Assembly (NCBI GenBank): GCA_013239625.1
Contig: MU055753.1
Coordinates: forward strand, 2,100,702-2,164,701
Length of the DNA: 64,000 nt
DNA from: Lama guanicoe
Lineage: Eukaryota
Reading direction: 5' to 3'
Shown here: positions 1,581 through 45,798 of the stretch, piece by piece
How positions within the stretch are numbered: the stretch's first letter is position 1
Layout: the number at the start of each line of letters is the position of its first letter
Notes under the pieces: model-generated
Told to the model about the DNA's origin: nothing
The model's input: only the letters and a program-made list of their open reading frames with translations
Database searches by the model: none
Translations under genes and position numbers: made by a program

Positions 1581-3037
1581 GACACTTGCGTTTTAAAAGG
1601 GTGCCTTGTTAACACAGATCAATGAGTGACTGTTCAGCAGTAGACTTCCCACTCCCCGTTGCCGGCCTGCACGGACACTACTCTTGCCCCCATACTTCTG
1701 TTTGGCACTTCTATTTTAAAGAGTGGCCAGTCCTGACTGTGCCTTCTCAGCCCCCTAGTGTCTACCTCCTCCTCTCGCCCCCTGCATAGCACCCCCCAAA
1801 CTGCTTCATCATCCAACCCCATCCTCAGCATTGGGGACTGCGTCCCTCAGACTGGAAGGATGGGGATCCCATAAAAATCCCCCAGGTGTTCGGGCACACC
1901 ACAGAGGCGTGGCTCAGCCTGACCTGTTCCTGCCCTCCATGGCCGCTCAGATGCCTGGGATTGGTTCCTTCTTCAGGTCAAAGAGTGAACTCACCATGAA
2001 AGGGGTTGGGGCGTAGTGGAAATGCTGAGGGTGGAGGTGGGGAGAGGCTGTCCTGAGCCCCTGCCCCAGCTCTGATCGGATCTGCCCCCAGTGAACCAGG
2101 CATAGGCAGGGCTCTCTCTACAGGCAGATATTTCTGGAGTGTTGCTGGCAGGGAGCTGAGGACTAATGGCCTGGCTGGGGTCTTCAGGCTGGGGTGGAGG
2201 ATCCATAGATACTGGGTAGCAGGCCCTGTGTCTCTGTCCAGAGACGTGGGGGTAACGGATCCAGGGGAGATGGGCCTCAGAATGGTCCCACTCCAACTCC
2301 TCTGCCAGTCCCCTCACCCAGGCAGGGGTGCCATGGCCCAGCGGGGGATCCTGGGCTCCAACTGCAAGCATCCTGGGATGTCTTGGAGAGGGGTTGGCTC
2401 TTGGGCACCTGGAATCTTGGGGAGACTGACCCAAGGCCACTGGCTGGCCTCTCTCTACTCCTCTGAGACCAGAGAGACCTGTGGAGCTGAGCTGTCATCT
2501 CATGATTAAACCTTGGAGGCTTGCTTATGCTGGAACAGACTGTGAGCAAAGGCCCCAGGGCCTATCTCTTCCTTCATCCCAGCCCCAGGCTGTTGAAGAG
2601 GGGTGAGGGAGACCCTACAGCACCAGGGCTGAAGGCTAGATTCTCCCCAGAGCTTCCAGACAAGGATGAGTGTGGGGTGTGGAGGAAAAGCCCCTGTGAG
2701 GACAAGAAGGAGCCATCCTGCCCCAAACAGGAGAATCAAGCTATGACAGGATCCCCTTGCTGGCATCTTCTAACTGGTTTCTCCTGGGGCAGGTTTATCC
2801 ATTCTTACAGATAAGCTCTGGTCCACAGGCCTGGGCCAGCAACCATTGCAGGGGGCCAGACTTGTGGGGAACTGAAAGTCCCTGGCTTCTCCTGCCAGGT
2901 ACTTCTGTGGACTTCCCTTCTAAGTCTGCAGGAGGCTGGGTGTGGAGCAGAGGAGAGTCTACTCCAAGCAGCAGTGGGAGGGGAAGAGCAGACCTTCAGC
3001 AAAGTTGGCTAATCACCTTCTTTTTTCTTGCTTTCAG

Positions 3038-3064
3038 GAACTCAGGGGACTGAGGCATTAAGTG
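3038..3064 (+). CDS. PRSS27: PRSS27 (marapsin) coding exon 2, 27-nt micro-exon (signal/pro-peptide, G-T-Q-G-T-E-A-L-S-A)
   Basis: Pyrimidine tract ttttttcttgctttcAG before 3038, GTAAGC donor at 3065; 27 nt, phase 1-1, joins in frame to ACGRPR; not in the ORF track. Confidence 0.8.
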
Positions 3065-3494
3065 GTAAGCATCTAAGGCCCTTGGGTTGAGGGAACAGGA
3101 GTGGGCTTGTCTGAGAGCTGCAAGACTGGCCAGGAACCCCCACCCCTGGAACGAGACCCAGAATGAATGGGCAGGGCACAGGGAATCCCACAGTGCAGAC
3201 AAGTTGTGGTTCAGTGGAACTGGAGCCCAGGGAGAAGTGGAGGAGAAAGGTCTGATACACAGTGCAGATGGCAAAAGAAGGCCACTGAGGCATGAAGCAT
3301 GGAGAAAGGGGGGCAGGAAAGGTGACAGGACAGCTAAGGATAGAACTGGAGGACCATTCTGCTATAACAGACCCCCTTGGGGTCACCTACCCCATGTGGG
3401 ACTCTCCCAACACCCACTGAACTTCCAGGAGCCCACCTGGCCCTGAGATAAGACCCTTACCTGTGTTATCTCACCACCCCCTCACCCCATGACC

Positions 3495-3570
3495 GGAGGT
3501 GTAGGTCTGATGTCACCATTTCACAGATGAAGGGTGTGAGGCCCACGGGGTGGGGGACTTCCCCACAGCT
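3495..3570 (+). mobile_element. MIR SINE fragment
   Basis: ccatttcacagatgaagg..tgaggccca core motif. Confidence 0.55.
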
Positions 3571-3679
3571 GGGAATGGTCTGCCTGTGTCAGAGGCTGAC
3601 TCGTTGCAGAGTCTTTTGACTTGCCTAAGGTCACCGAGCAGGTCAGGGGCAGGGAGGCTGGGAATTGGGCAGAAAGTAA

Positions 3680-3928
<249 letters not shown>

Positions 3929-4037
3929 TAAGTCTGCTGAGACCCCACGCTCCCCCTCCCCACCCAACGCCAGCCTCACCGGCCTTTCTCTCTACTGGGG
4001 CGCAGACCCTGTACATGGTAACCCACGAACGCTCGGC

Positions 4038-4058
4038 TTCAGCACCGCGGACAGCGCC
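4038..4058 (+). promoter_or_regulatory. RE1/NRSE (REST binding site) with an abutting CACGTG E-box, in PRSS27 intron 3
   Basis: TTCAGCACCGCGGACAGCGCC, 20/21 match to the RE1 consensus TTCAGCACCACGGACAGCGCC, in a locally CpG-rich patch. Confidence 0.85.
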
Positions 4059-4589
4059 ACGTGTGGCGGGGCGCGGGCGCTCGGGCTGAACACCTACCCG
4101 CTGGGGAGGCTGTCCAGCACTGACCGGCCTTCCCAGACAGAGCTCCCTTTAGGTCCAACCACGGAGCCAGCTTCTGGCAGTAATCGTTGCTTCCCAGCCT
4201 TTGCCCCTCTCAGCCGAGCTGGGAGGGGTCCATTCCCCAGCTGCTGGCCTCACAAGTGAGGTGCTTTGTCAGGCCTGGGGTCCCATCCCTGCAAACGCTG
4301 GCAGGCTCCTTCCGCACCCTGGCCTTCTTCCCTGTCCCCTCTCCCAGACTTCAAATCCAGGACACTCCCTTTCTGGCTGGGACTCTGGTTACAAATGGAC
4401 TGGAGCAGAATGTCCCTTCCTCCTCCTCATCCTAAGGTCACCTATACCATCCCTATCCAAAGAGCCAAGCCACCCAATCCCTGCTATCATACCGTGACCC
4501 ACCTGGCCCAGACCTATAGGGTTTCCCAGGCATCTCAGCTTCTCTCACCATAGCTCTGCAATTCTTTTAAAACTTCACATCTTAAATTC

Positions 4590-4810
4590 AGAAATGTGGG
4601 CTCAGAGGGAGTAGGTCACTTGCCTAAGGCTGGGTCCAACCCCCAGCTGCACACCCATGGGTGGTCATCTCCAACTCTCACAGCAAACCTTTCAGGTAGG
4701 GATTGTTCCTGTCCCCATTTTACAGACAAGAAAACTGAGTCACAGAGAACTTGCTTGGTGACTTGCCCCAGGTTGCCAAGCTGGCCAGGGTGGAGTTGGG
4801 AACTAAAGCT
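4590..4810 (+). mobile_element. MIR SINE fragments
   Basis: ccccattttacagacaagaaaactgagtcacagaga..gtgacttgcccc core, plus ggctcagaggg..cacttgcctaagg. Confidence 0.75.
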
Positions 4811-5012
4811 GCTTCAGCTTCTACACCCTCAACCACCTCATCCTGATGTTTGTCCCCCTGGAGATTACTTTTTTGATGATAATGTGCAAAGAGAGATTAG
4901 GCACTGGGGTGGGCTGGGAGAGAGCCCAACTCCTAGTTCCCTTCTCCATTAAACTTCCCCTTGTTAAGCCCTAGTGGGGCTGCCTCACACCAGGTCTCTG
5001 CTCTCCTACCAG

Positions 5013-5284
5013 CACCTCTGAAACATTGCTGTACCAGGTCCTGCTGGGGGCGCGGCAACTGGTGAAGCCGGGGCCACATGCCATGTACGCTGGGGTGAAG
5101 CGAGTGGAGAGCAACCCCCTGTACCAGGGCATGGCCTCTAGTGCCGATGTGGCCCTGGTGGAGCTGGAGGCGCCCGTGACCTTCACCGATTATATCCTCC
5201 CTGTGTGTGTTCCTGACCCATCGGTCATCTTTGAGACAGGCATGAACTGCTGGGTCACCGGCTGGGGCAGCCCCAGTGAACAAG
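5013..5284 (+). CDS. PRSS27: PRSS27 exon 4: catalytic Asp (SSADVAL), CWVTGWG
   Basis: ctaccAG acceptor, G|GTAATG donor, 272 nt, in phase with neighbouring exons. Confidence 0.97.
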
Positions 5285-5658
5285 GTAATGGACATGGCCA
5301 GGAGAGAATGGGGGACAGGCCTAGAGAAAGCAGCTTGGGGGCCAATCTGAACCAACAATCTTTTTCTGTTAATATTGGTACACATGATTTCTACACAAGT
5401 GGGTGGAGTAAGTATGGAAAGGGGCCACAGGCTCAGGAGGAGGAGCCATGGGGAAGTGGAGAAAGGGGAACAAAGAGCCTAGCCTCGTAGATGGAGGGAG
5501 GGAAGAAGCAATTCTGTTCCACAAAGCTGAGGGCCAGAAGAGGTCTAAACCCAAGCAAGAAATGGGGAGGGACAGAGCTATGGTCCTTGAGAACCCAGAG
5601 TCATGGGGTCCTCAGTAAGACTATCCATTGAGCTGCAGGCTGTGTCACCCCTCCCCAG

Positions 5659-5828
5659 AGCGCCTACCCAACCCACGGATCCTGCAGAAACTTGCAGTGC
5701 CCATCATTGACACGCCCAAGTGCAACCTGCTCTACAGCAAAGACGCCGAGTCCGGCTTCCAGCCAAAAACCATCAAGGAGGACATGCTGTGTGCAGGCTT
5801 CGCCGAGGGCAAGAAGGACGCCTGCAAG
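5659..5828 (+). CDS. PRSS27: PRSS27 exon 5: LQKLAVPII...DMLCAG...KKDACK (S1-pocket Asp, trypsin-like)
   Basis: ccccAG acceptor, AAG|GTAGGG donor, 170 nt. Confidence 0.97.
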
Positions 5829-6191
5829 GTAGGGATTAGCGTGGGCTATGCAGGGGCTGAGGCCTGCTCCCAAGGCCTGGGTCAGGGTGGAAGCCAGTCT
5901 ACCTGGGACAAGGCACGAGGCCCCTGTTGGAGGGCCCTCCCAGGGGAGTCAATCAGTAGGTCTGCAGTGGGGCTGAGGAAACTGCTCTTTCAGCTTGTTC
6001 CTCTGAGGTGAATCAGGGTGGGAGCTGGGGATGCTAGAGAAATTGGCACCCCAGGCCAGAGAGGAAGGACCAGAGGGGAGTAGGGGGGTGTCCTAGCCAC
6101 GGGGAGGAAAACGGGCCTGTGGGTACCTGTGTACCACATAGGCTGGCTCTTGGGCCTCTATGAGCTTTGACTGTGCCTGTTTCACCCACAG

Positions 6192-6485
6192 GGAGACTCA
6201 GGGGGCCCCCTGGTGTGCCTTGTGGGCCAGTCGTGGATGCAGGCTGGGGTGATCAGCTGGGGCGAGGGCTGCGCCCGCCGGAACCGCCCAGGCGTCTACA
6301 TCCGGGTCACCTCTCACCATAATTGGATCCATCGCATCATTCCCAAACTGCAGTTCCAGCGGGCTAGGTCAGGTGGCCAGAAGCGGGGCTTCCGGGGCCA
6401 TCAGCTCCCCAGTAGGAACTTAGCGCCCTGCCTGGCAGCCCATGCCATCCTCCTGGTCCTCATTGCCCCGCTCACCTTCCTCTGA
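6192..6485 (+). CDS. PRSS27: PRSS27 last exon: GDSGGP catalytic Ser, SWGEGC, hydrophobic C-terminal tail, TGA
   Basis: cacAG acceptor; GGAGACTCAGGGGGCCCC; stop at 6483-6485. Confidence 0.97.
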
Positions 6486-6602
6486 ACCTCACTGAGGCCG
6501 GTGGCGCAGTGGAGCCCCGGGGCCCAGGGTGTACATTTGTAAATAGCTCCCCAATTCTCCCTTCTCTCAAGTGCTCACTTTTTAAATTTATGTTCATGAG
6601 CC

Positions 6603-6608
6603 AATAAA
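6603..6608 (+). terminator. PRSS27: PRSS27 poly(A) signal
   Basis: First AATAAA, ~120 nt after the stop, preceded by a U-rich stretch. Confidence 0.75.
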
Positions 6609-8249
6609 AACCCAACCTCAGTGCTGGCTCCCTGAGCATGGACTCTCAGGTGAAGGAGTCGGGGTGGAGAGGTGCTGGATGTGATGGTGCCGGAGGGGAT
6701 GGCGCTGAGGAGCTGTGAGTTGGGGGGTCAATGTTGGGTGGGAAATTAGAGGGCAAGGCTCCCCAGTGGAAGGGAACTACAGTAGGCACGCTGGAGGCTG
6801 GACATCACTGAGTCTAGGGCCTCCTTGTCTCCTGTGACATCTGTCACCAGACCCCCTCACAGGTGGCTTCCCTGCTCCCACCCCTGCCTCAGTGTCCTTG
6901 CCAACGTGGTCCTCACCACAAGTGTTGCCAAGGGGTGCCCTGTGTTGGGCACTGGGGGCAGTGACAGACACTAGTAGGGGCCCTGGGGGAGGGTCCAGGA
7001 GGGCCCTGCGGAGTGTTGGGGATCACAGCCCCCACTGCTTGTGTCTGAATCACCCCAAAACTTCTCTTGGTGATGCACTGCTCCTGCAGGGGCTGCTCCT
7101 GGTGCCCAAGGGCCCCCTTTACCCACCTCTTCTTTTCCTCTACCCACTCCCTCGGCCTCAACCTCCGTCAGTGAAAGCAAAGCTGCAGTGGGTAGGGAGA
7201 GGCTGGAGTTGGGGTCCACATCTTCTGGGAGACTTTGGACAAGTCACAGCCCCTTCTGAGCCCGTTTCTCTCCTGCCACCCAGGACAGCGCCCCCACCTG
7301 CCTCTCGGGTGACGAGGTGGATGGAGAACTTGCCTAAGGCTATGTCAGTCTCCTGTGCCTGCCCACCTCCTTCCTAGGCTCCAGCCGCCTGGGGACAGCT
7401 CTGCCAGGGATATGCAGACCCAACACCCCAGAGGCTAGACCTCCCCAGACCTCAGGGATGCAGGGGCCTGTGTGACCTACATCAAGTTCACACACAGCAG
7501 TCAGAGCTGTGATGCTGTCACACAGAGGAGCCAAGGCCCAGGTCACGCGGGGCCATGGAGGTCAGCAGGAAAGGTCCCTCCGGGACAGGCAGAGGTTTCA
7601 GCAGCTACCTGAGCCAGGACCCCTTCCTTCCTCCTTCCGCAATGTTTGAAGCTGAGGCCAGACTTGCTGGAGTCTTTAATGGTTTCTGCGAGGATCCCTG
7701 GGAATTCAGAAACAAGCTAGAATCCTGCACAGACAGCCTTGTGCTCAGCCCCTGCCCAGTGTCCCCACCCCCTTGTCCCTCATCCTGTCATCACCCCACA
7801 CAATCCCTTCCTAGTCCACCCAGTTTCAGCCTGTGGCCACCAGGAATCCAGCAGGAACAGGTCTCGAAGCTCAGGCCCCCGGCTCACTCCGGCCCTGCCT
7901 GTCAAGGCCCTGATGGTGCAGCTGCCCACGCAGGCAGCCCTGGGTTCTCAGTCTGGCCCAAGTGCGTCCACAGCAGGCCTTCTGTAGCCAGACGATCGAC
8001 TCCCCCATGTGGGCGGACTGCTGAAAGGCAGCAGGCTTCCGCTGTGCTCAGCAACCTTGAACGGGAAAGAGTCCTAGGGGGACAGGGCCTTGGACACTAC
8101 ACACACACACCCATGCCCACAGGCTAGTGCACACCACATGCATACGCATGCAGATGGACCCACCAGTGCACACATGCCTATGCACACCCAGGCACAGAGA
8201 AGCACACGCACGTAAGAGAGCACACACACGGACCCATACTCTCCCAGCT

Positions 8250-8345: not shown

Positions 8346-11239
8346 CTACTTTGCCTGGGCATGTTCCCGAGGGCAGGAAGGAGTGCTTGGTGGCCCTCTG
8401 GGGACTGGGTCCTCTGTGAGCAACTTCTCCAGAGCAGAATGGGCTCCAAGTTCTAGGGGAGGAGGCAGTGCAGGGAAGGGAGGAAGAGGTACAGGGCAGC
8501 AGGTGCACTGAGGCCTGATGGGGGAACAATTCCGTTGTGGGTGTCCTGAGGGTGGCTCCAGGGACAAGTTCTCGGTCATTCTGGCTGGAATCAAGGGGCT
8601 GGCCTGGGTCCTGCAGCCCTGGAGAGAGGCTAGCCCCCTGTGGGGAGAAGAAAAAGCTTCAGGTCCTACAGAGGTGGGCATCAGGGGAGGTTAGACAGAC
8701 CCTCTGCCACCTTGGTGGTGAGAGGCCAGGATGGAGATGGGGTGAGGACCAGGCTCCTCTTAGAGGAGGACCTGCCACCCCATCTGCCTCCTCTTGCCTG
8801 CTGTCCTAACTTTCCAGGTGCCCTGGTATCCCCCATCACCCCACTCATTCTCTTCCCTCTGCTACAGGAGTCTGGTTAGGGTTCCGCGGGGCTAACAGGG
8901 AGGAGAGGCACAGATGTCAGGGCTGCCCAGCACCCCCATTAACGCTCCACCCAGCCGGGCTGGGAGGGTGTCTGAGGCCCTGGGTGGGTCCCAGGTGGTG
9001 GCAAGCATATGATTCTAGGGCACAGGTCCTCCACCACCTGGGTTCCCCAAACACTAGCCCCACCCAGGCCCAAGTGGGAGGGGAAGGGACAACACTCTTG
9101 CAGAATCTAGGGTTTCAATGGGAAGCAGGTTTATGCAGGCCATTCACAGTTCACAGTAAGCTCAGTGTTGTGCCCCCAGCTGTTGCAGGTCCCCTCTCCC
9201 ACCTGGGTAGGGGTGCCAGGCAGGCAAGACTTTCCATGCTGCCACCAAGCAGCAGCTCAGAGCCACCGCCTGGTGAGTGGGCAGCAGTGACAGGGCCCCG
9301 GCAGCTGCAGCAACAACACTTCAGAGCACAGGCTGGCCCAGTCTGGGAGACTGTCTGCCAGCCTGCTGGGGGCAGAGGGGAGCAGGCACAGCCCAGGGCT
9401 GGGTCCACCTCGCAGCAACCACAGCAGCCTGCAGGTGAAGCAAGAGGAGGGGGCCACAACCAAGCCTGGAAATCCACACACGTGCACACACACCACATAC
9501 CATACGCTCATGGACATGATGAGCCCGTGGGGCCCCAAGGAGGAAAACTGCTGGGCCAGGACCCCTGAATCCTTCTGGCCTCAAGGATTAGGGGTGAGCC
9601 ATGGCCCTGAGGTCACAGGACTGGCTCTGTACCCTGAGCTGAGCTCCAGATCCTGGAGCATCTGTGCAGGGGACTGGAGGCCTCATGCTACCTCCTGGAG
9701 CTCAGGTGCTCAGAAGGCGGGGCAGGCAGAGGTGCAAATCACCAGACACCCCCCTAAATGCAGAGGTTGGGCAATGGCATTCAGATTTGCGATATTTCTC
9801 AGGGAACCACTGCTCGGTCCAAAGGTGCCAGAGTGGAGCTGCCTCTGCTCATGAATGCCGGCCACGCAGGCCCTGAGGCACCGGGGCTCAGCACACACAG
9901 GCTCTGCAGGACGGACAAATGGCTGCACTGCAGGCTCAGCCCTTCACTGCCTCAGCCGGACTCAGTGACCGATGGGCAGTGGGGCACCAGCCAGCCCCTA
10001 CCGCCAGCTCCAGGATAGAAGAAGCACCTGCTGGGTGGACACAAGGAAATGCAAGGGAGGGGAGGGGCAAGGCAAGGGGAGTAAAGGAGATGCCTGGCCC
10101 TGGAAGGTTCCGGGCACAGGCTCTGCAGGAGGCCCAGCAGCTGGGGACCCACCCAGGGAGTCTACACACTCCAAGCGCCCACCTCCCTCTTCTGTCCTGC
10201 CCACTGGCTTCCTGGAGCTACAGGGCTGGCGACACTGAGGCTTCCAGAAGTGCTGTGCCCCAGGTCCCTCCCCATGCCCTCCTACACCGGGTATGCTGGG
10301 CCTGGAGCATGGGGTCCAAGGGGCAGGCTCTGTCCCAACCCTGAGGACCCAGCAAAAGGGCCTTGGACCTCAGGACCCAGGCTGGATGGCTGTCTCCTCT
10401 CCAGTCCTTTGCTCGGTCAGCAGTCAAGCCCCGACCTCAGCTGGGACACCCGAGATGCTCTGGGGCCTCTCCCTAGCAGAGCGGCCTGGAAGCAAGTCCA
10501 GGTTTGCTGTTGGCCTCAAGGACCTGAAGATGCCAAGTTTAGTCTGTTCAGAAAGCAAGCTCCTTGGAGAATTTGAAGTCCCTCCCCATGTGCCCCAAAC
10601 TATACAGTGAACACCCCAGAGGCCCCTCCTCCCTGGCCCCAGCAGAAGGGTTCCCACCCCCAAGCCTGGGCAGTCAGACTGGCCCTGGAAACAGGATGGA
10701 CACTCCCCAAAAGCTGGGAGTTTGGGTAGCAGGAGACACCAGCATCTTGGGGTCAAAGACACCTTAGCCAACCTCAGGGAGCCAGCGCTCTCCCAGTAAA
10801 CACAGGAATGGGGATTCCCATAATGCCTGGTCATCCTGGAAGCTTTTGAAGAGCAGCCACCAGGGGGAGCCAGAGAGGCCATGGTGGAGCAGGGTGGACA
10901 AGGAATTTCAAAGAAATTTCCCTGAAGCTGGTGCTTCTGGCCAGAGAAGAGACAGGACAGGTGCACACACTTAATTCCATGGGCATCATTAATTTTTAAA
11001 AAAGCACTTGAAGATGATTTCCTTGTCCCCAGGGATGGGGGCATGATACCAGCAAGAGAGGTGAGGTGGCTGGGGCCAGGGGCCCGAGGGGGAAGATGGG
11101 AGTGTGTTGCTCTAATCTGCCAGCCCCAGGCTGGACAGTGGGTGTACGGGCGGACAGCCCGGGGCTGCCACGAGCCCAAGGCAGTGCTTCTGCGGCTGCA
11201 GCTCTTCCACGCATTTTCAGACACTAACAGTTATTATGC

Positions 11240-37539: not shown

Positions 37540-38380
37540 GTACTTTCGAGGATGGTGGGCGCCAGAGCGCCGTCCTGTCCTTCCCCGACCCAGGACAAGG
37601 AGTCGGGGTTGGGGGCGGGGAGCGCTCGGGTCGAGCTGGCGACCAGGGGAGCGCAGGGCTCGGAGCCCGGGCGGGTCTCCTCAGCGTGGGGCAGGGGGCG
37701 TGCAGCGGGGCGGCCCGCAGCGAGCCGCCGACCGGGGCGGCCCGCACCCTCGTGGCTGGCCCGCACGGCCCTCACCTTGTCCGAGTCCAGGTCGGGGTCG
37801 GCCTGGCACAAACGGTACAGGAAGGATTTCGGATCCCGGCACAGCGTCTGCCGGGTGGTGAGGAAGTAGGTGCCGCCGACGTTGAGCCGGACCCACTTGG
37901 ACACGCTGCCGGGACGCTGGGCCAAGGCGCCTAGCCCCGCGCTGCAGCGGCGGCACAGGCCGCCCCCCAGCCCCGCCCCGAGGCCGCCCGGGGCCGGCGG
38001 TAACAGCTCGCAGTGATTCTCCGCCATGATCCCAGCAAGCCCCGCCACAGCGCCTCTCCACCGGAAGCGTCCGGCCTTTAATACAGTCCTCCGAGCTCTG
38101 TCCCGCCCACGGGTCCGCCCTCGTAAAGCACCCACCCTGGCGTCACGCGGGAGGCGGAAGTTCCGGTCCGGAAAAACGGCCGGCCGTGCCCCCTTCCGGC
38201 CGGAGCCTGGCGCTGCGTGGTCCGCGACAGGGGGCGGTGGATCCGAGACTGTAGGGTTTGAGAAGGGCTCGCCGGCCGCCGCCGGGAGCGTGCGGTGTCC
38301 GGACGCCGGATTCCTGGCCCCGAATCCAGGTAGCCCGACAACGCCCGACCCGCGCCCTGGCCAAAGGAAGAGAGCTACGT
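37540..38380 (-). promoter_or_regulatory. KCTD5: KCTD5 CpG-island promoter: ETS sites, GC boxes, CRE half-sites, TATA-like TATTAAA (38083-38077)
   Basis: Very high CpG density; CCGGAAG at 38061, CGGAAGTTCCG at 38155-38165, CCGCCC boxes, GCGTCA and ACGTCA. Confidence 0.9.
37776..38027 (-). CDS. KCTD5: KCTD5 exon 1 coding part (MAENHCELL...[11 protein letters not shown]...DSDK)
   Basis: atcATGG Kozak context, 252 nt, AAG|GTGAG donor; the six exons total 705 nt = 234 aa plus stop. Confidence 0.97.
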
Positions 38381-44235: not shown

Positions 44236-44638
44236 CTGCAGAGACAGAAACGTTTAATGTTCTTGAGGGAGTCCCACCACAACCAGCACCTCCACCCATC
44301 AGTGAGCAACTGGAAGAAATTGCCATCCTACTGCAGCCGCTGCAAGTACCTTCTGGAAGCACGTGAGCATGCGGAATTTTTTCCCTCCACATATGTGCAG
44401 AGATTAAACATGCACGTGATGACCTACACAGCTCCCTTGCATCACTCCTGAACTGAAAAACAAGCATAGGTACCTCCCGGCCCAAATCAGAACTGAGCCA
44501 CAAACGTGGGAAAGGCGGAGACCACCGCCCCACTCCAGCTGCCCCCTCAGTTCCACAGCATTTGGATGCTCTGAATAGAGGCACAAAGATCCAAAGGCCT
44601 CCAACTGCCCTGCAAAGAACCTGTAGGGATAAACTCAC

Positions 44639-44791
44639 CGTGTGGACAAAGAAGGTTTTAAAATTTTTGGCCTCTGGTCGGAGTTCTTGCGACCATGGAA
44701 TTTCACCTTTCAAGACTTTGTTGACAGGATCCACATAATATAAGTGTGGCCCTTCTGTGAGCAGTAACTGTCGTCGCCGTGCAAATAAACC
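44639..44791 (-). CDS. PDPK1: PDPK1 exon 13 ([11 protein letters not shown]...FFVHT), PH domain
   Basis: 153 nt, phase 0-0, ACG|GTGAGT donor. Confidence 0.97.
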
Positions 44792-45798
44792 CTGATGCAA
44801 AAAAAGAAACAAAGAAAGAAAAAGGACACTGCTTGTTAAGGCTCAAAAGTGGGTGCTGACAGCACTTATCACTGCCTCAGAGGCTGGACTGTCAGAGGAG
44901 CTCCAGGCACAGGGACCACTGCCAGCCACCTGCCCACTCACCTGCGACAGAGGGGCGTGCACACCTCCCTCCTACTTGGACACAGCCCCTTGGGTCAGAA
45001 AGAAATGGGAAGCACTCAAGGCCTGGCCTGCCTGCCCTGCTGAGCGGGACCCCAACACCCCTATTCCAGGCTTCGCTACTCTGGTTGCCATGTCGGGGAG
45101 TGGCAGCATAGGTAGGTGCACCTGAGGCCAGCACATTGGCTCAGGTCCCTGTCACTGAGCCAGCTCCAAGGAGCCTGTCACCAGCAGTCAGGGCCCTACT
45201 ATTTCTCATGCCCTCTGCTCCACACCAGGGCACAGGGTTCTGCCTGCTGGCCGGTCACACCACAACCCTCCTTCATGGAGGTTCCCACCACTGAGGATGC
45301 ATGGGGGTGGGTGAGGCTGAGCATGGCCAGCAATGGAGGCCAGGAGCCTCGACTAAGAAAGGTCCACATCGGCAGAAAGAGAACATTTGTGGTGTGTGAT
45401 ATTTTTGACACAATTCATTTACTTAATATTTTCAAGAGCAATTAGAATGAAGTCATAAACAACTTGCCAGGACTCAAGCAGAGCCTCCTCAACAGGACAG
45501 AAACTTTGACCTCAGTGAAGCTAGCCTCAGGGAGAAATCAGAACGCTGGCTCCCCAGTCAGAAATGAGAGGCTGCATTTCTGTCTGCCAAGGCCTGCCAT
45601 GTAGTTTCAATCGCCTCTCCCGAATGGCTGAAATCTTCCTTACCTATCAAATTTAGAGATGATCTCTTAAAGGGAACCAAGACAGAGGTGCTATGTGCAT
45701 GAGTTATAGCAGGAGCCTGAGGAGCAAGGCCTGATCCTGAGTGAAAATCAGGAGGAAGACATAGACACACAAGAAGGAGTGGTGGGAATCTAACTTAC

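Follow-up and report, generated by a model that had tools for sequence, protein, structure and literature searches.

A conserved canonical RE1 in an intron of guanaco PRSS27 and its possible role as a local damper

What does a canonical RE1, the binding site for REST, do inside a non-neuronal protease gene? An initial annotation of a 64-kb stretch of DNA from the guanaco (Lama guanicoe), referred to here as the window, placed such an element in an intron of PRSS27 and proposed that REST may keep this gene or the neighboring proteases off, or may act at a distance on KCTD5 and PDPK1. The element is a real and conserved canonical RE1; it has been catalogued before and is ordinary in kind. The effect that it might have on its host gene was examined by bringing together the sequence context, the published occupancy and reporter tables, and the published lists of genes that respond to the loss of REST.

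The element TTCAGCACCGCGGACAGCGCC lies on the forward strand (positions 4038–4058) and matches 19 of the 19 specified letters of the RE1/NRSE consensus, which is composed of a left half (TTCAGCACC), a 2-bp spacer, and a right half (GGACAGCGCC). The consensus used is that of the initial annotation and the standard one, and it agrees with the top-scoring human oligonucleotide. When as many as three mismatches to TTCAGCACCNNGGACAGCGCC are permitted, this site is the sole match in the window, whereas shuffled sequences carry a mean of 0.01 matches, with one match in one of 100 shuffles. Across 2.05 Gb of the genome, a search with a free spacer yields 29 exact matches (16 forward and 13 reverse) versus none for a reversed control pattern. 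Its GC spacer is the commonest one among these exact matches (seven of 29).

The host is a predicted trypsin-family gene with six exons (Table 1). All five of its introns have GT-AG boundaries, and its 975-nt frame lacks an internal stop and carries the His, Asp, and Ser motifs. On the basis of this predicted structure, its location next to KCTD5, and its match to a human exon labeled PRSS27, the gene is assigned as an intact orthologue of PRSS27 (marapsin), for which we take MPN to be an alias. The RE1 is located 110 bases into intron 3 and about 4.5 kb downstream of the PRSS27 start codon, and the promoter nearest to it is PRSS27's own. Among 24 listed sequencing runs, 14 contain at least half of the words of positions 3000–6600, and the fraction in six RNA runs ranges from 0.08 to 0.42.

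Table 1. Positions of the RE1, its host gene, and neighboring features (window coordinates except where noted)
Feature	Position	Strand	Basis or remark
PRSS27 exon 1, carries ATG	L030:9504, 497 nt before window	+	predicted (splice signals, frame)
PRSS27 exon 2, 27 nt	3038-3064	+	predicted (splice signals, frame)
PRSS27 exon 3	3765-3927	+	activation site MVGG, catalytic His motif TAAHC
PRSS27 intron 3, 1085 nt, RE1 host	3928-5012	+	gene model
CpG-retaining patch, RE1 at center	3940-4130	.	18 CpG, o/e 0.81
Canonical RE1/NRSE	4038-4058	+	left half 4038-4046, spacer GC 4047-4048, right half 4049-4058
CACGTG E-box	4058-4063	.	absent in human; probably incidental
Intronic 11-mer TTAGGTCCAAC, orthology anchor 3' of RE1	4149-4159	+	identical in human oligonucleotide, by eye
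PRSS27 exon 4	5013-5284	+	catalytic Asp motif DVAL
PRSS27 exon 5	5659-5828	+	gene model
PRSS27 exon 6	6192-6608	+	GDSGG; stop 6483-6485; AATAAA 6603-6608
RE1 right half-site GGACAGCGCC	7283-7292	+	2 in window vs 0.10 in shuffles
KCTD5 first coding exon, candidate distal target	37764-38024	-	E 5e-53; 34 kb from RE1
PDPK1 PH-domain exon, candidate distal target	44615-44794	-	E 1e-31; promoter past window end

Several other features of the neighborhood were recorded. The order PDPK1-KCTD5-PRSS27 is kept in the guanaco window. A PRSS22-like gene, so named for its sequence, lies head-to-head with PRSS27 about 32–35 kb upstream (L033:4880-7844, reverse strand). In human, SRRM2, ELOB, and other proteases lie between PRSS22 and PRSS27, so that the human and guanaco orders would differ by an inversion. 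On the 3' side of the PRSS22-like gene, some 51 kb before the window (L035:8825-8845), there is a second RE1 with an intact core, GCCAGCACCACGGACAGGGCT, and four flank mismatches. In the 60 kb that precede the window, a counterpart of the PRSS27 RE1 was sought in the paralogue PRSS22, both beyond its His exon and on its upstream side, where human has a peak; with as many as four mismatches permitted, the only hit was one in which all four affect the core (L033:8891). A CpG island at L030:7950-8950, 1–2 kb before the window, has 71 CpG in L030 8001-9000 and holds TGACGTCA and GC boxes 0.5–1.5 kb upstream of the PRSS27 start codon; such an island is unusual for a tissue-restricted protease. Intron 1 of PRSS27 contains a short tRNA-like interspersed element (window positions about 1495–1580), which resembles a camelid SINE, and two tRNA-Ala calls upstream (L032:8282-8353 and 8665-8737) may be similar interspersed elements.

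The human orthologue of the guanaco element is present as oligonucleotide REST_chr16:2765548-2765748 (hg19) in the reporter library with which Mouri et al. (PMC9903721, Tables S2, S8, and S9) covered RE1s genome-wide; a motif entered this library if one or more of four lines had a REST peak over it. By eye, the opposite strand of this oligonucleotide runs from the last part of the corresponding TAAHC exon through the donor of that exon to the motif TTCAGCACCGTGGACAGCGCC, which lies 59 bases on. The guanaco and human RE1s are identical at 20 of 21 letters and differ at spacer position 11 (by eye), so that the human spacer reads GT. The two sites also share the intron, the strand relative to the gene, CpG-rich flanks, and the exact 11-mer TTAGGTCCAAC on the 3' side (by eye). 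In contrast, the human site is closer to the donor (59 versus 110 bases), has no E-box, and has an extra GACAGCGCC between the donor and the RE1 (by eye).

Occupancy of the orthologous intron is documented in published tables. Rockowitz and Zheng (2015; PMC4499139, Table S2) list a human ESC REST peak at chr16:2765509-2765776 with a score of 1324.7 and a weak mouse ESC peak at chr17:24042897-24043107 with a score of 78.8, both of which are labeled "conserved" and assigned to PRSS27. For comparison, that study reports that only 15.3% of human REST peaks are conserved in mouse, and its table has a further peak, close to PRSS22, for human alone. MPN and PRSS22 both figure in the list of Jurkat REST ChIP-seq targets that Wagoner et al. 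(PMC2883591) reused, and among the other non-neuronal genes of that list are ALB, CEACAMs, CMA1, KRT10, SCEL, and S100A7. Strong REST binding, which the initial annotation anticipated, and conservation across mammals are therefore borne out for the human and mouse orthologous intron by these tables and by the 20 shared letters. The surprise that was expressed at a non-neuronal host is overstated, since the Jurkat list contains many such genes. Because the guanaco site combines the motif with two bound orthologues, REST very probably binds it in the guanaco itself.

The mouse gene has a second peak (mm10 chr17:24046086-24046281; PMC4499139) that is stronger, with a score of 464.8, that is non-alignable to human, and that lies 3.18 kb from the intronic peak. 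At a similar distance, 3.24 kb on the 3' side of its RE1 and slightly beyond the 3' end of PRSS27, the guanaco has just an isolated RE1 right half-site, whose left half is degenerate. This half-site may be a decayed counterpart of the second mouse peak.

The motif has kept 20 of its 21 letters while its neighboring bases and its spacing from the exon (110 versus 59) have diverged, and the mouse peak has been kept as well; this pattern suggests selection on the 21-mer. Since the site is present in the guanaco lineage, in human, and (as a peak) in mouse, we infer that it was inherited from their common ancestor. Delivery by a transposon or by duplication was considered and rejected. A BLAST comparison of 3-kb loci with the motif masked revealed no flank similarity near the motif between the PRSS27 RE1 and the 28 other exact-match RE1s, and thus nothing points to a recent duplication or to carriage by a transposon. 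One 34-base match to these other loci is found about 700 bases from the RE1.

A further claim was that the element occupies a CpG-retaining patch in a CpG-poor intron, and the counts agree with it. The patch has a GC content of 0.70 and an observed/expected (o/e) CpG ratio of 0.81, versus 0.10 for the other 882 bases of intron 3, which hold six CpG. Such a patch is typical of strong RE1s in general. For 22 of the 28 other perfect RE1s, the CpG o/e within 100 bases (motif excluded) is greater than that at 300–600 bases (median 0.55 versus 0.29; Wilcoxon p 2e-4), and for 23 of the 28 it is greater than that at 900–1500 bases. When 12 island-like RE1s are dropped, a local CpG excess is seen in 14 of the 16 perfect RE1s with CpG-poor flanks, and eight of the 16 have an o/e of at least 0.5, a value that is reached by 6.3% of 2361 random centers in the window. 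The pooled CpG profile of the perfect RE1s has its maximum at the motif, from which it falls off across some 500 bases. Some of these other loci (L002, L008, L018, L021, and more) have narrow CpG-dense patches, with 28–33 CpG within 100 bases on each side.

Regions bound by REST are known to be hypomethylated, and they gain methylation in knockout cells (PMC3868540, PMC4499139). The guanaco element has in common with the RE1s at REST-dependent low-methylated regions described by Feldmann et al. (2013; PMC3868540) the 21-bp motif of two halves with a 2-bp spacer, and its CpG retention is as expected of a methylation-protected site. We infer that protection from methylation in the germ line or early embryo has preserved the CpGs of the patch.

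The final base of the RE1, at position 4058, is also the first base of CACGTG, as the initial annotation had noted. From this overlap it was proposed that REST competes with a bHLH-ZIP factor (USF/MYC) for the site; such competition would make a switch. A post hoc local Markov estimate gives ∼7e-4 for ACGTG directly after the motif and ∼1e-2 for any CACGTG within 40 positions, and therefore a CACGTG near an RE1 is not a frequent accident. However, the human RE1 is followed by CGCCGC rather than ACGTG (by eye), and hence the composite of RE1 and E-box is not conserved at the human site. Among the 28 other perfect RE1s, a CACGTG within 30 bases occurs only once, and there it lies on the opposite (5') side; two further perfect RE1s are followed by flanks that begin ..CACG without a complete E-box. 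The hexamer also occurs 21 times in the window. Competition at the overlapping E-box is thus not borne out and is extremely improbable, although a function restricted to this species is conceivable. Because the human site lacks CACGTG, the E-box next to the guanaco RE1 is probably incidental, and it plausibly arose by CpG decay in a CG-rich flank.

Evidence that the element can silence comes from the human copy. Its FIMO score is 32.398 (MA0138.2; PMC9903721, Table S8), which is above the silencing threshold of 20.86 and which applies to a copy that is one spacer letter apart from that of the guanaco. Scrambling the RE1 within the human 200-mer raised reporter output in GM12878 cells with all five enhancers (PMC9903721). 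In the GM12878 rows, the scrambled minus native differences (log2) are 1.92, 2.02, 1.51, 1.50, and 0.62, with logP values of 2.08, 3.17, 1.68, 2.03, and 1.10, respectively. These skews have P < 0.05 in four of five cases and FDR < 0.05 in none, the best logFDR being 1.29. The silencer activity claimed for the element is therefore upheld in sign for the human 200-mer in this line, short of significance at an FDR of 0.05.

The same reporter data bear on another explanation, namely that the GC- and CpG-rich patch would act as a cryptic promoter or enhancer within PRSS27 if REST did not hold it down. The native 200-mer is positive (log2FC 1.9–5.0) and the scrambled version is positive as well (3.8–5.6; PMC9903721), and hence the flanks may activate, as a patch with this GC content might. 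However, these values include the paired enhancer, and REST binding accounts for the patch as a by-product. We therefore consider a cryptic promoter to be very unlikely.

If REST kept PRSS27 off, then the gene should be found among those that rise when REST is lost. PRSS27 (or MPN), KCTD5, and PRSS22 are absent from the lists of genes up more than twofold after REST knockdown in HEK-293, MCF10a, and T47D cells (two replicates; probe presence aside). Likewise, Prss27, Kctd5, Pdpk1, and Prss22 are not named in the significant-gene lists for Rest-knockout mouse myofibres, muscle stem cells, and myoblasts in 10 supplement files (PMC12343973), in which Snap25 rises by 7.2–11.4 log2 in the muscle populations. 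PRSS27 is thus unlike RE1 targets of the SNAP25 type, since it is non-neuronal and is not derepressed in these six settings. The proposal that REST is the factor keeping PRSS27, PRSS22, or KCTD5 off finds no confirmation in the lists from these settings. The lack of a response indicates that PRSS27 is not kept off by REST alone, and, because MCF10a cells are epithelial, it also counts against a simple damper. Among the six settings, stratified squamous epithelium is represented at most in part, by MCF10a.

When five strong RE1s were edited by CRISPR (PMC9903721), expression of a nearby gene rose in three cases (in two of them a distal gene), fell in one, and did not change in one. Given this mixed outcome, a distal target and the lack of any effect are both live rivals to a local action. 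The edited RE1s of SLC5A5 and DLGAP4, whose hosts are non-neuronal or are not the targets, are strong and intronic, like the PRSS27 element, and demonstrate that the target need not be the host gene. Those two sites differ from the PRSS27 site in that a target was found for them by editing; in the passage of that paper that names its edits, the PRSS27 site does not figure.

One possibility, which we judge to be somewhat unlikely, is that the RE1 is bound and conserved and has little or no effect on its neighbors, any repression being redundant with a lack of activators. PRSS27, KCTD5, and PRSS22 would then be expected to remain unchanged, as they do in the six settings, and one of the five edits of strong RE1s indeed changed nothing nearby (PMC9903721). 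Also consistent with this possibility is the report that co-repressors are assembled only at the strongest REST sites and that the effects are context-dependent (PMC4499139). However, the near-complete retention of the 21-mer amid diverged flanks, together with the kept mouse peak, suggests selection, and the settings covered stratified squamous epithelium only insofar as MCF10a represents it.

Another alternative is that the RE1 acts distally on PDPK1 or KCTD5 instead of on its host. PDPK1 rose 2.44-fold on REST knockdown in MCF10a cells, and the conserved gene order and the precedent of the DLGAP4 and SLC5A5 elements, which regulated other genes, are compatible with such an action. This rise occurred on knockdown with a single shRNA, was not seen in HEK-293 or T47D cells, and made PDPK1 one of 379 genes that were up in MCF10a alone. 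In human, a partial PDPK1 duplicate lies near the PRSS27 RE1 and could cross-hybridise on arrays. Moreover, Pdpk1 and Kctd5 are absent from the mouse knockout lists, and the promoters are distant from the element (34 kb for KCTD5 and more than 60 kb for PDPK1). Of the distal action suggested in the initial annotation, a weak hint therefore persists for PDPK1, the part concerning KCTD5 finds no support in these lists, and we regard distal action as unlikely.

The reading that we favor, with a probability of roughly 0.5, is that the bound RE1 acts as a local damper on PRSS27 and not as an off-switch. According to this proposal, the canonical RE1 in intron 3 of the predicted guanaco gene would be occupied by REST, as the orthologous sites are in the human and mouse tables, and would repress in a motif-dependent manner, as the sign of the reporter skews suggests for the human 200-mer in GM12878 cells. 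REST occupancy would keep the flanks unmethylated, such that their CpGs escape decay and a patch results, and the E-box would be a lineage-specific by-product of this CpG-rich flank. Recruitment of co-repressors would then lower the output of PRSS27, with REST being one of the restraints on the gene and not the only one. Such a damper would matter only in cells that have the epithelial activators of PRSS27.

In favor of the damper are the motif, its orthology (including the synteny with KCTD5 and PDPK1), the occupancy, the FIMO strength, the reporter sign, the CpG patch, and the identity of the nearest promoter. Weighing against it, PRSS27 is not up in any of the REST-loss data sets considered, the mouse intronic peak is weak (78.8 versus 464.8), and no reporter skew has an FDR below 0.05. 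In addition, edits of strong RE1s changed distal genes in two of three validated cases and nothing in one of five (PMC9903721).

A broader and quite doubtful extension is that REST gates a set of squamous-differentiation genes, and that it sets a ceiling for wound- or inflammation-induced protease output in stratified epithelia. Among genes picked by eye, REST peaks are listed at PRSS22, KRT10, SCEL, S100A7, and RHCG, and CNFN, CYP4F22, LYPD5, and ABCA12 are up after REST knockdown in single lines only. We take these genes (KRT10, SCEL, CNFN, ABCA12, and the others) to have roles in squamous differentiation. PRSS27 is raised in psoriasis, in wounds, and in Netherton skin (PMC10844249, in part from the title of its reference 71). 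Searches of the full-text literature, which leaves most subscription journals outside, found no paper linking PRSS27 to REST, RE1, or NRSF; one review (PMC5067692) contains these terms in unrelated contexts. The same literature yielded no description of a role for REST in squamous epithelium or keratinocyte differentiation. PRSS27, KCTD5, and PDPK1 are not named in the 10 supplement files of Rockowitz 2014 (PMC4055426), which may hold coordinates only.

The REST site in PRSS27 is already known from the human and mouse catalogues, and the guanaco site adds a third mammalian lineage to it. The CpG patch and the E-box need no special explanation. The locus is of mild interest since a conserved RE1 of top strength resides in a host gene that has no response in the tested REST-loss settings, and the element may matter in stratified epithelium. 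The PRSS27 RE1 also lends itself well to asking why certain RE1s of the greatest strength and conservation sit in genes that are unresponsive to REST loss. If REST were shown to limit PRSS27, this would reveal a direct role for REST in squamous epithelium.
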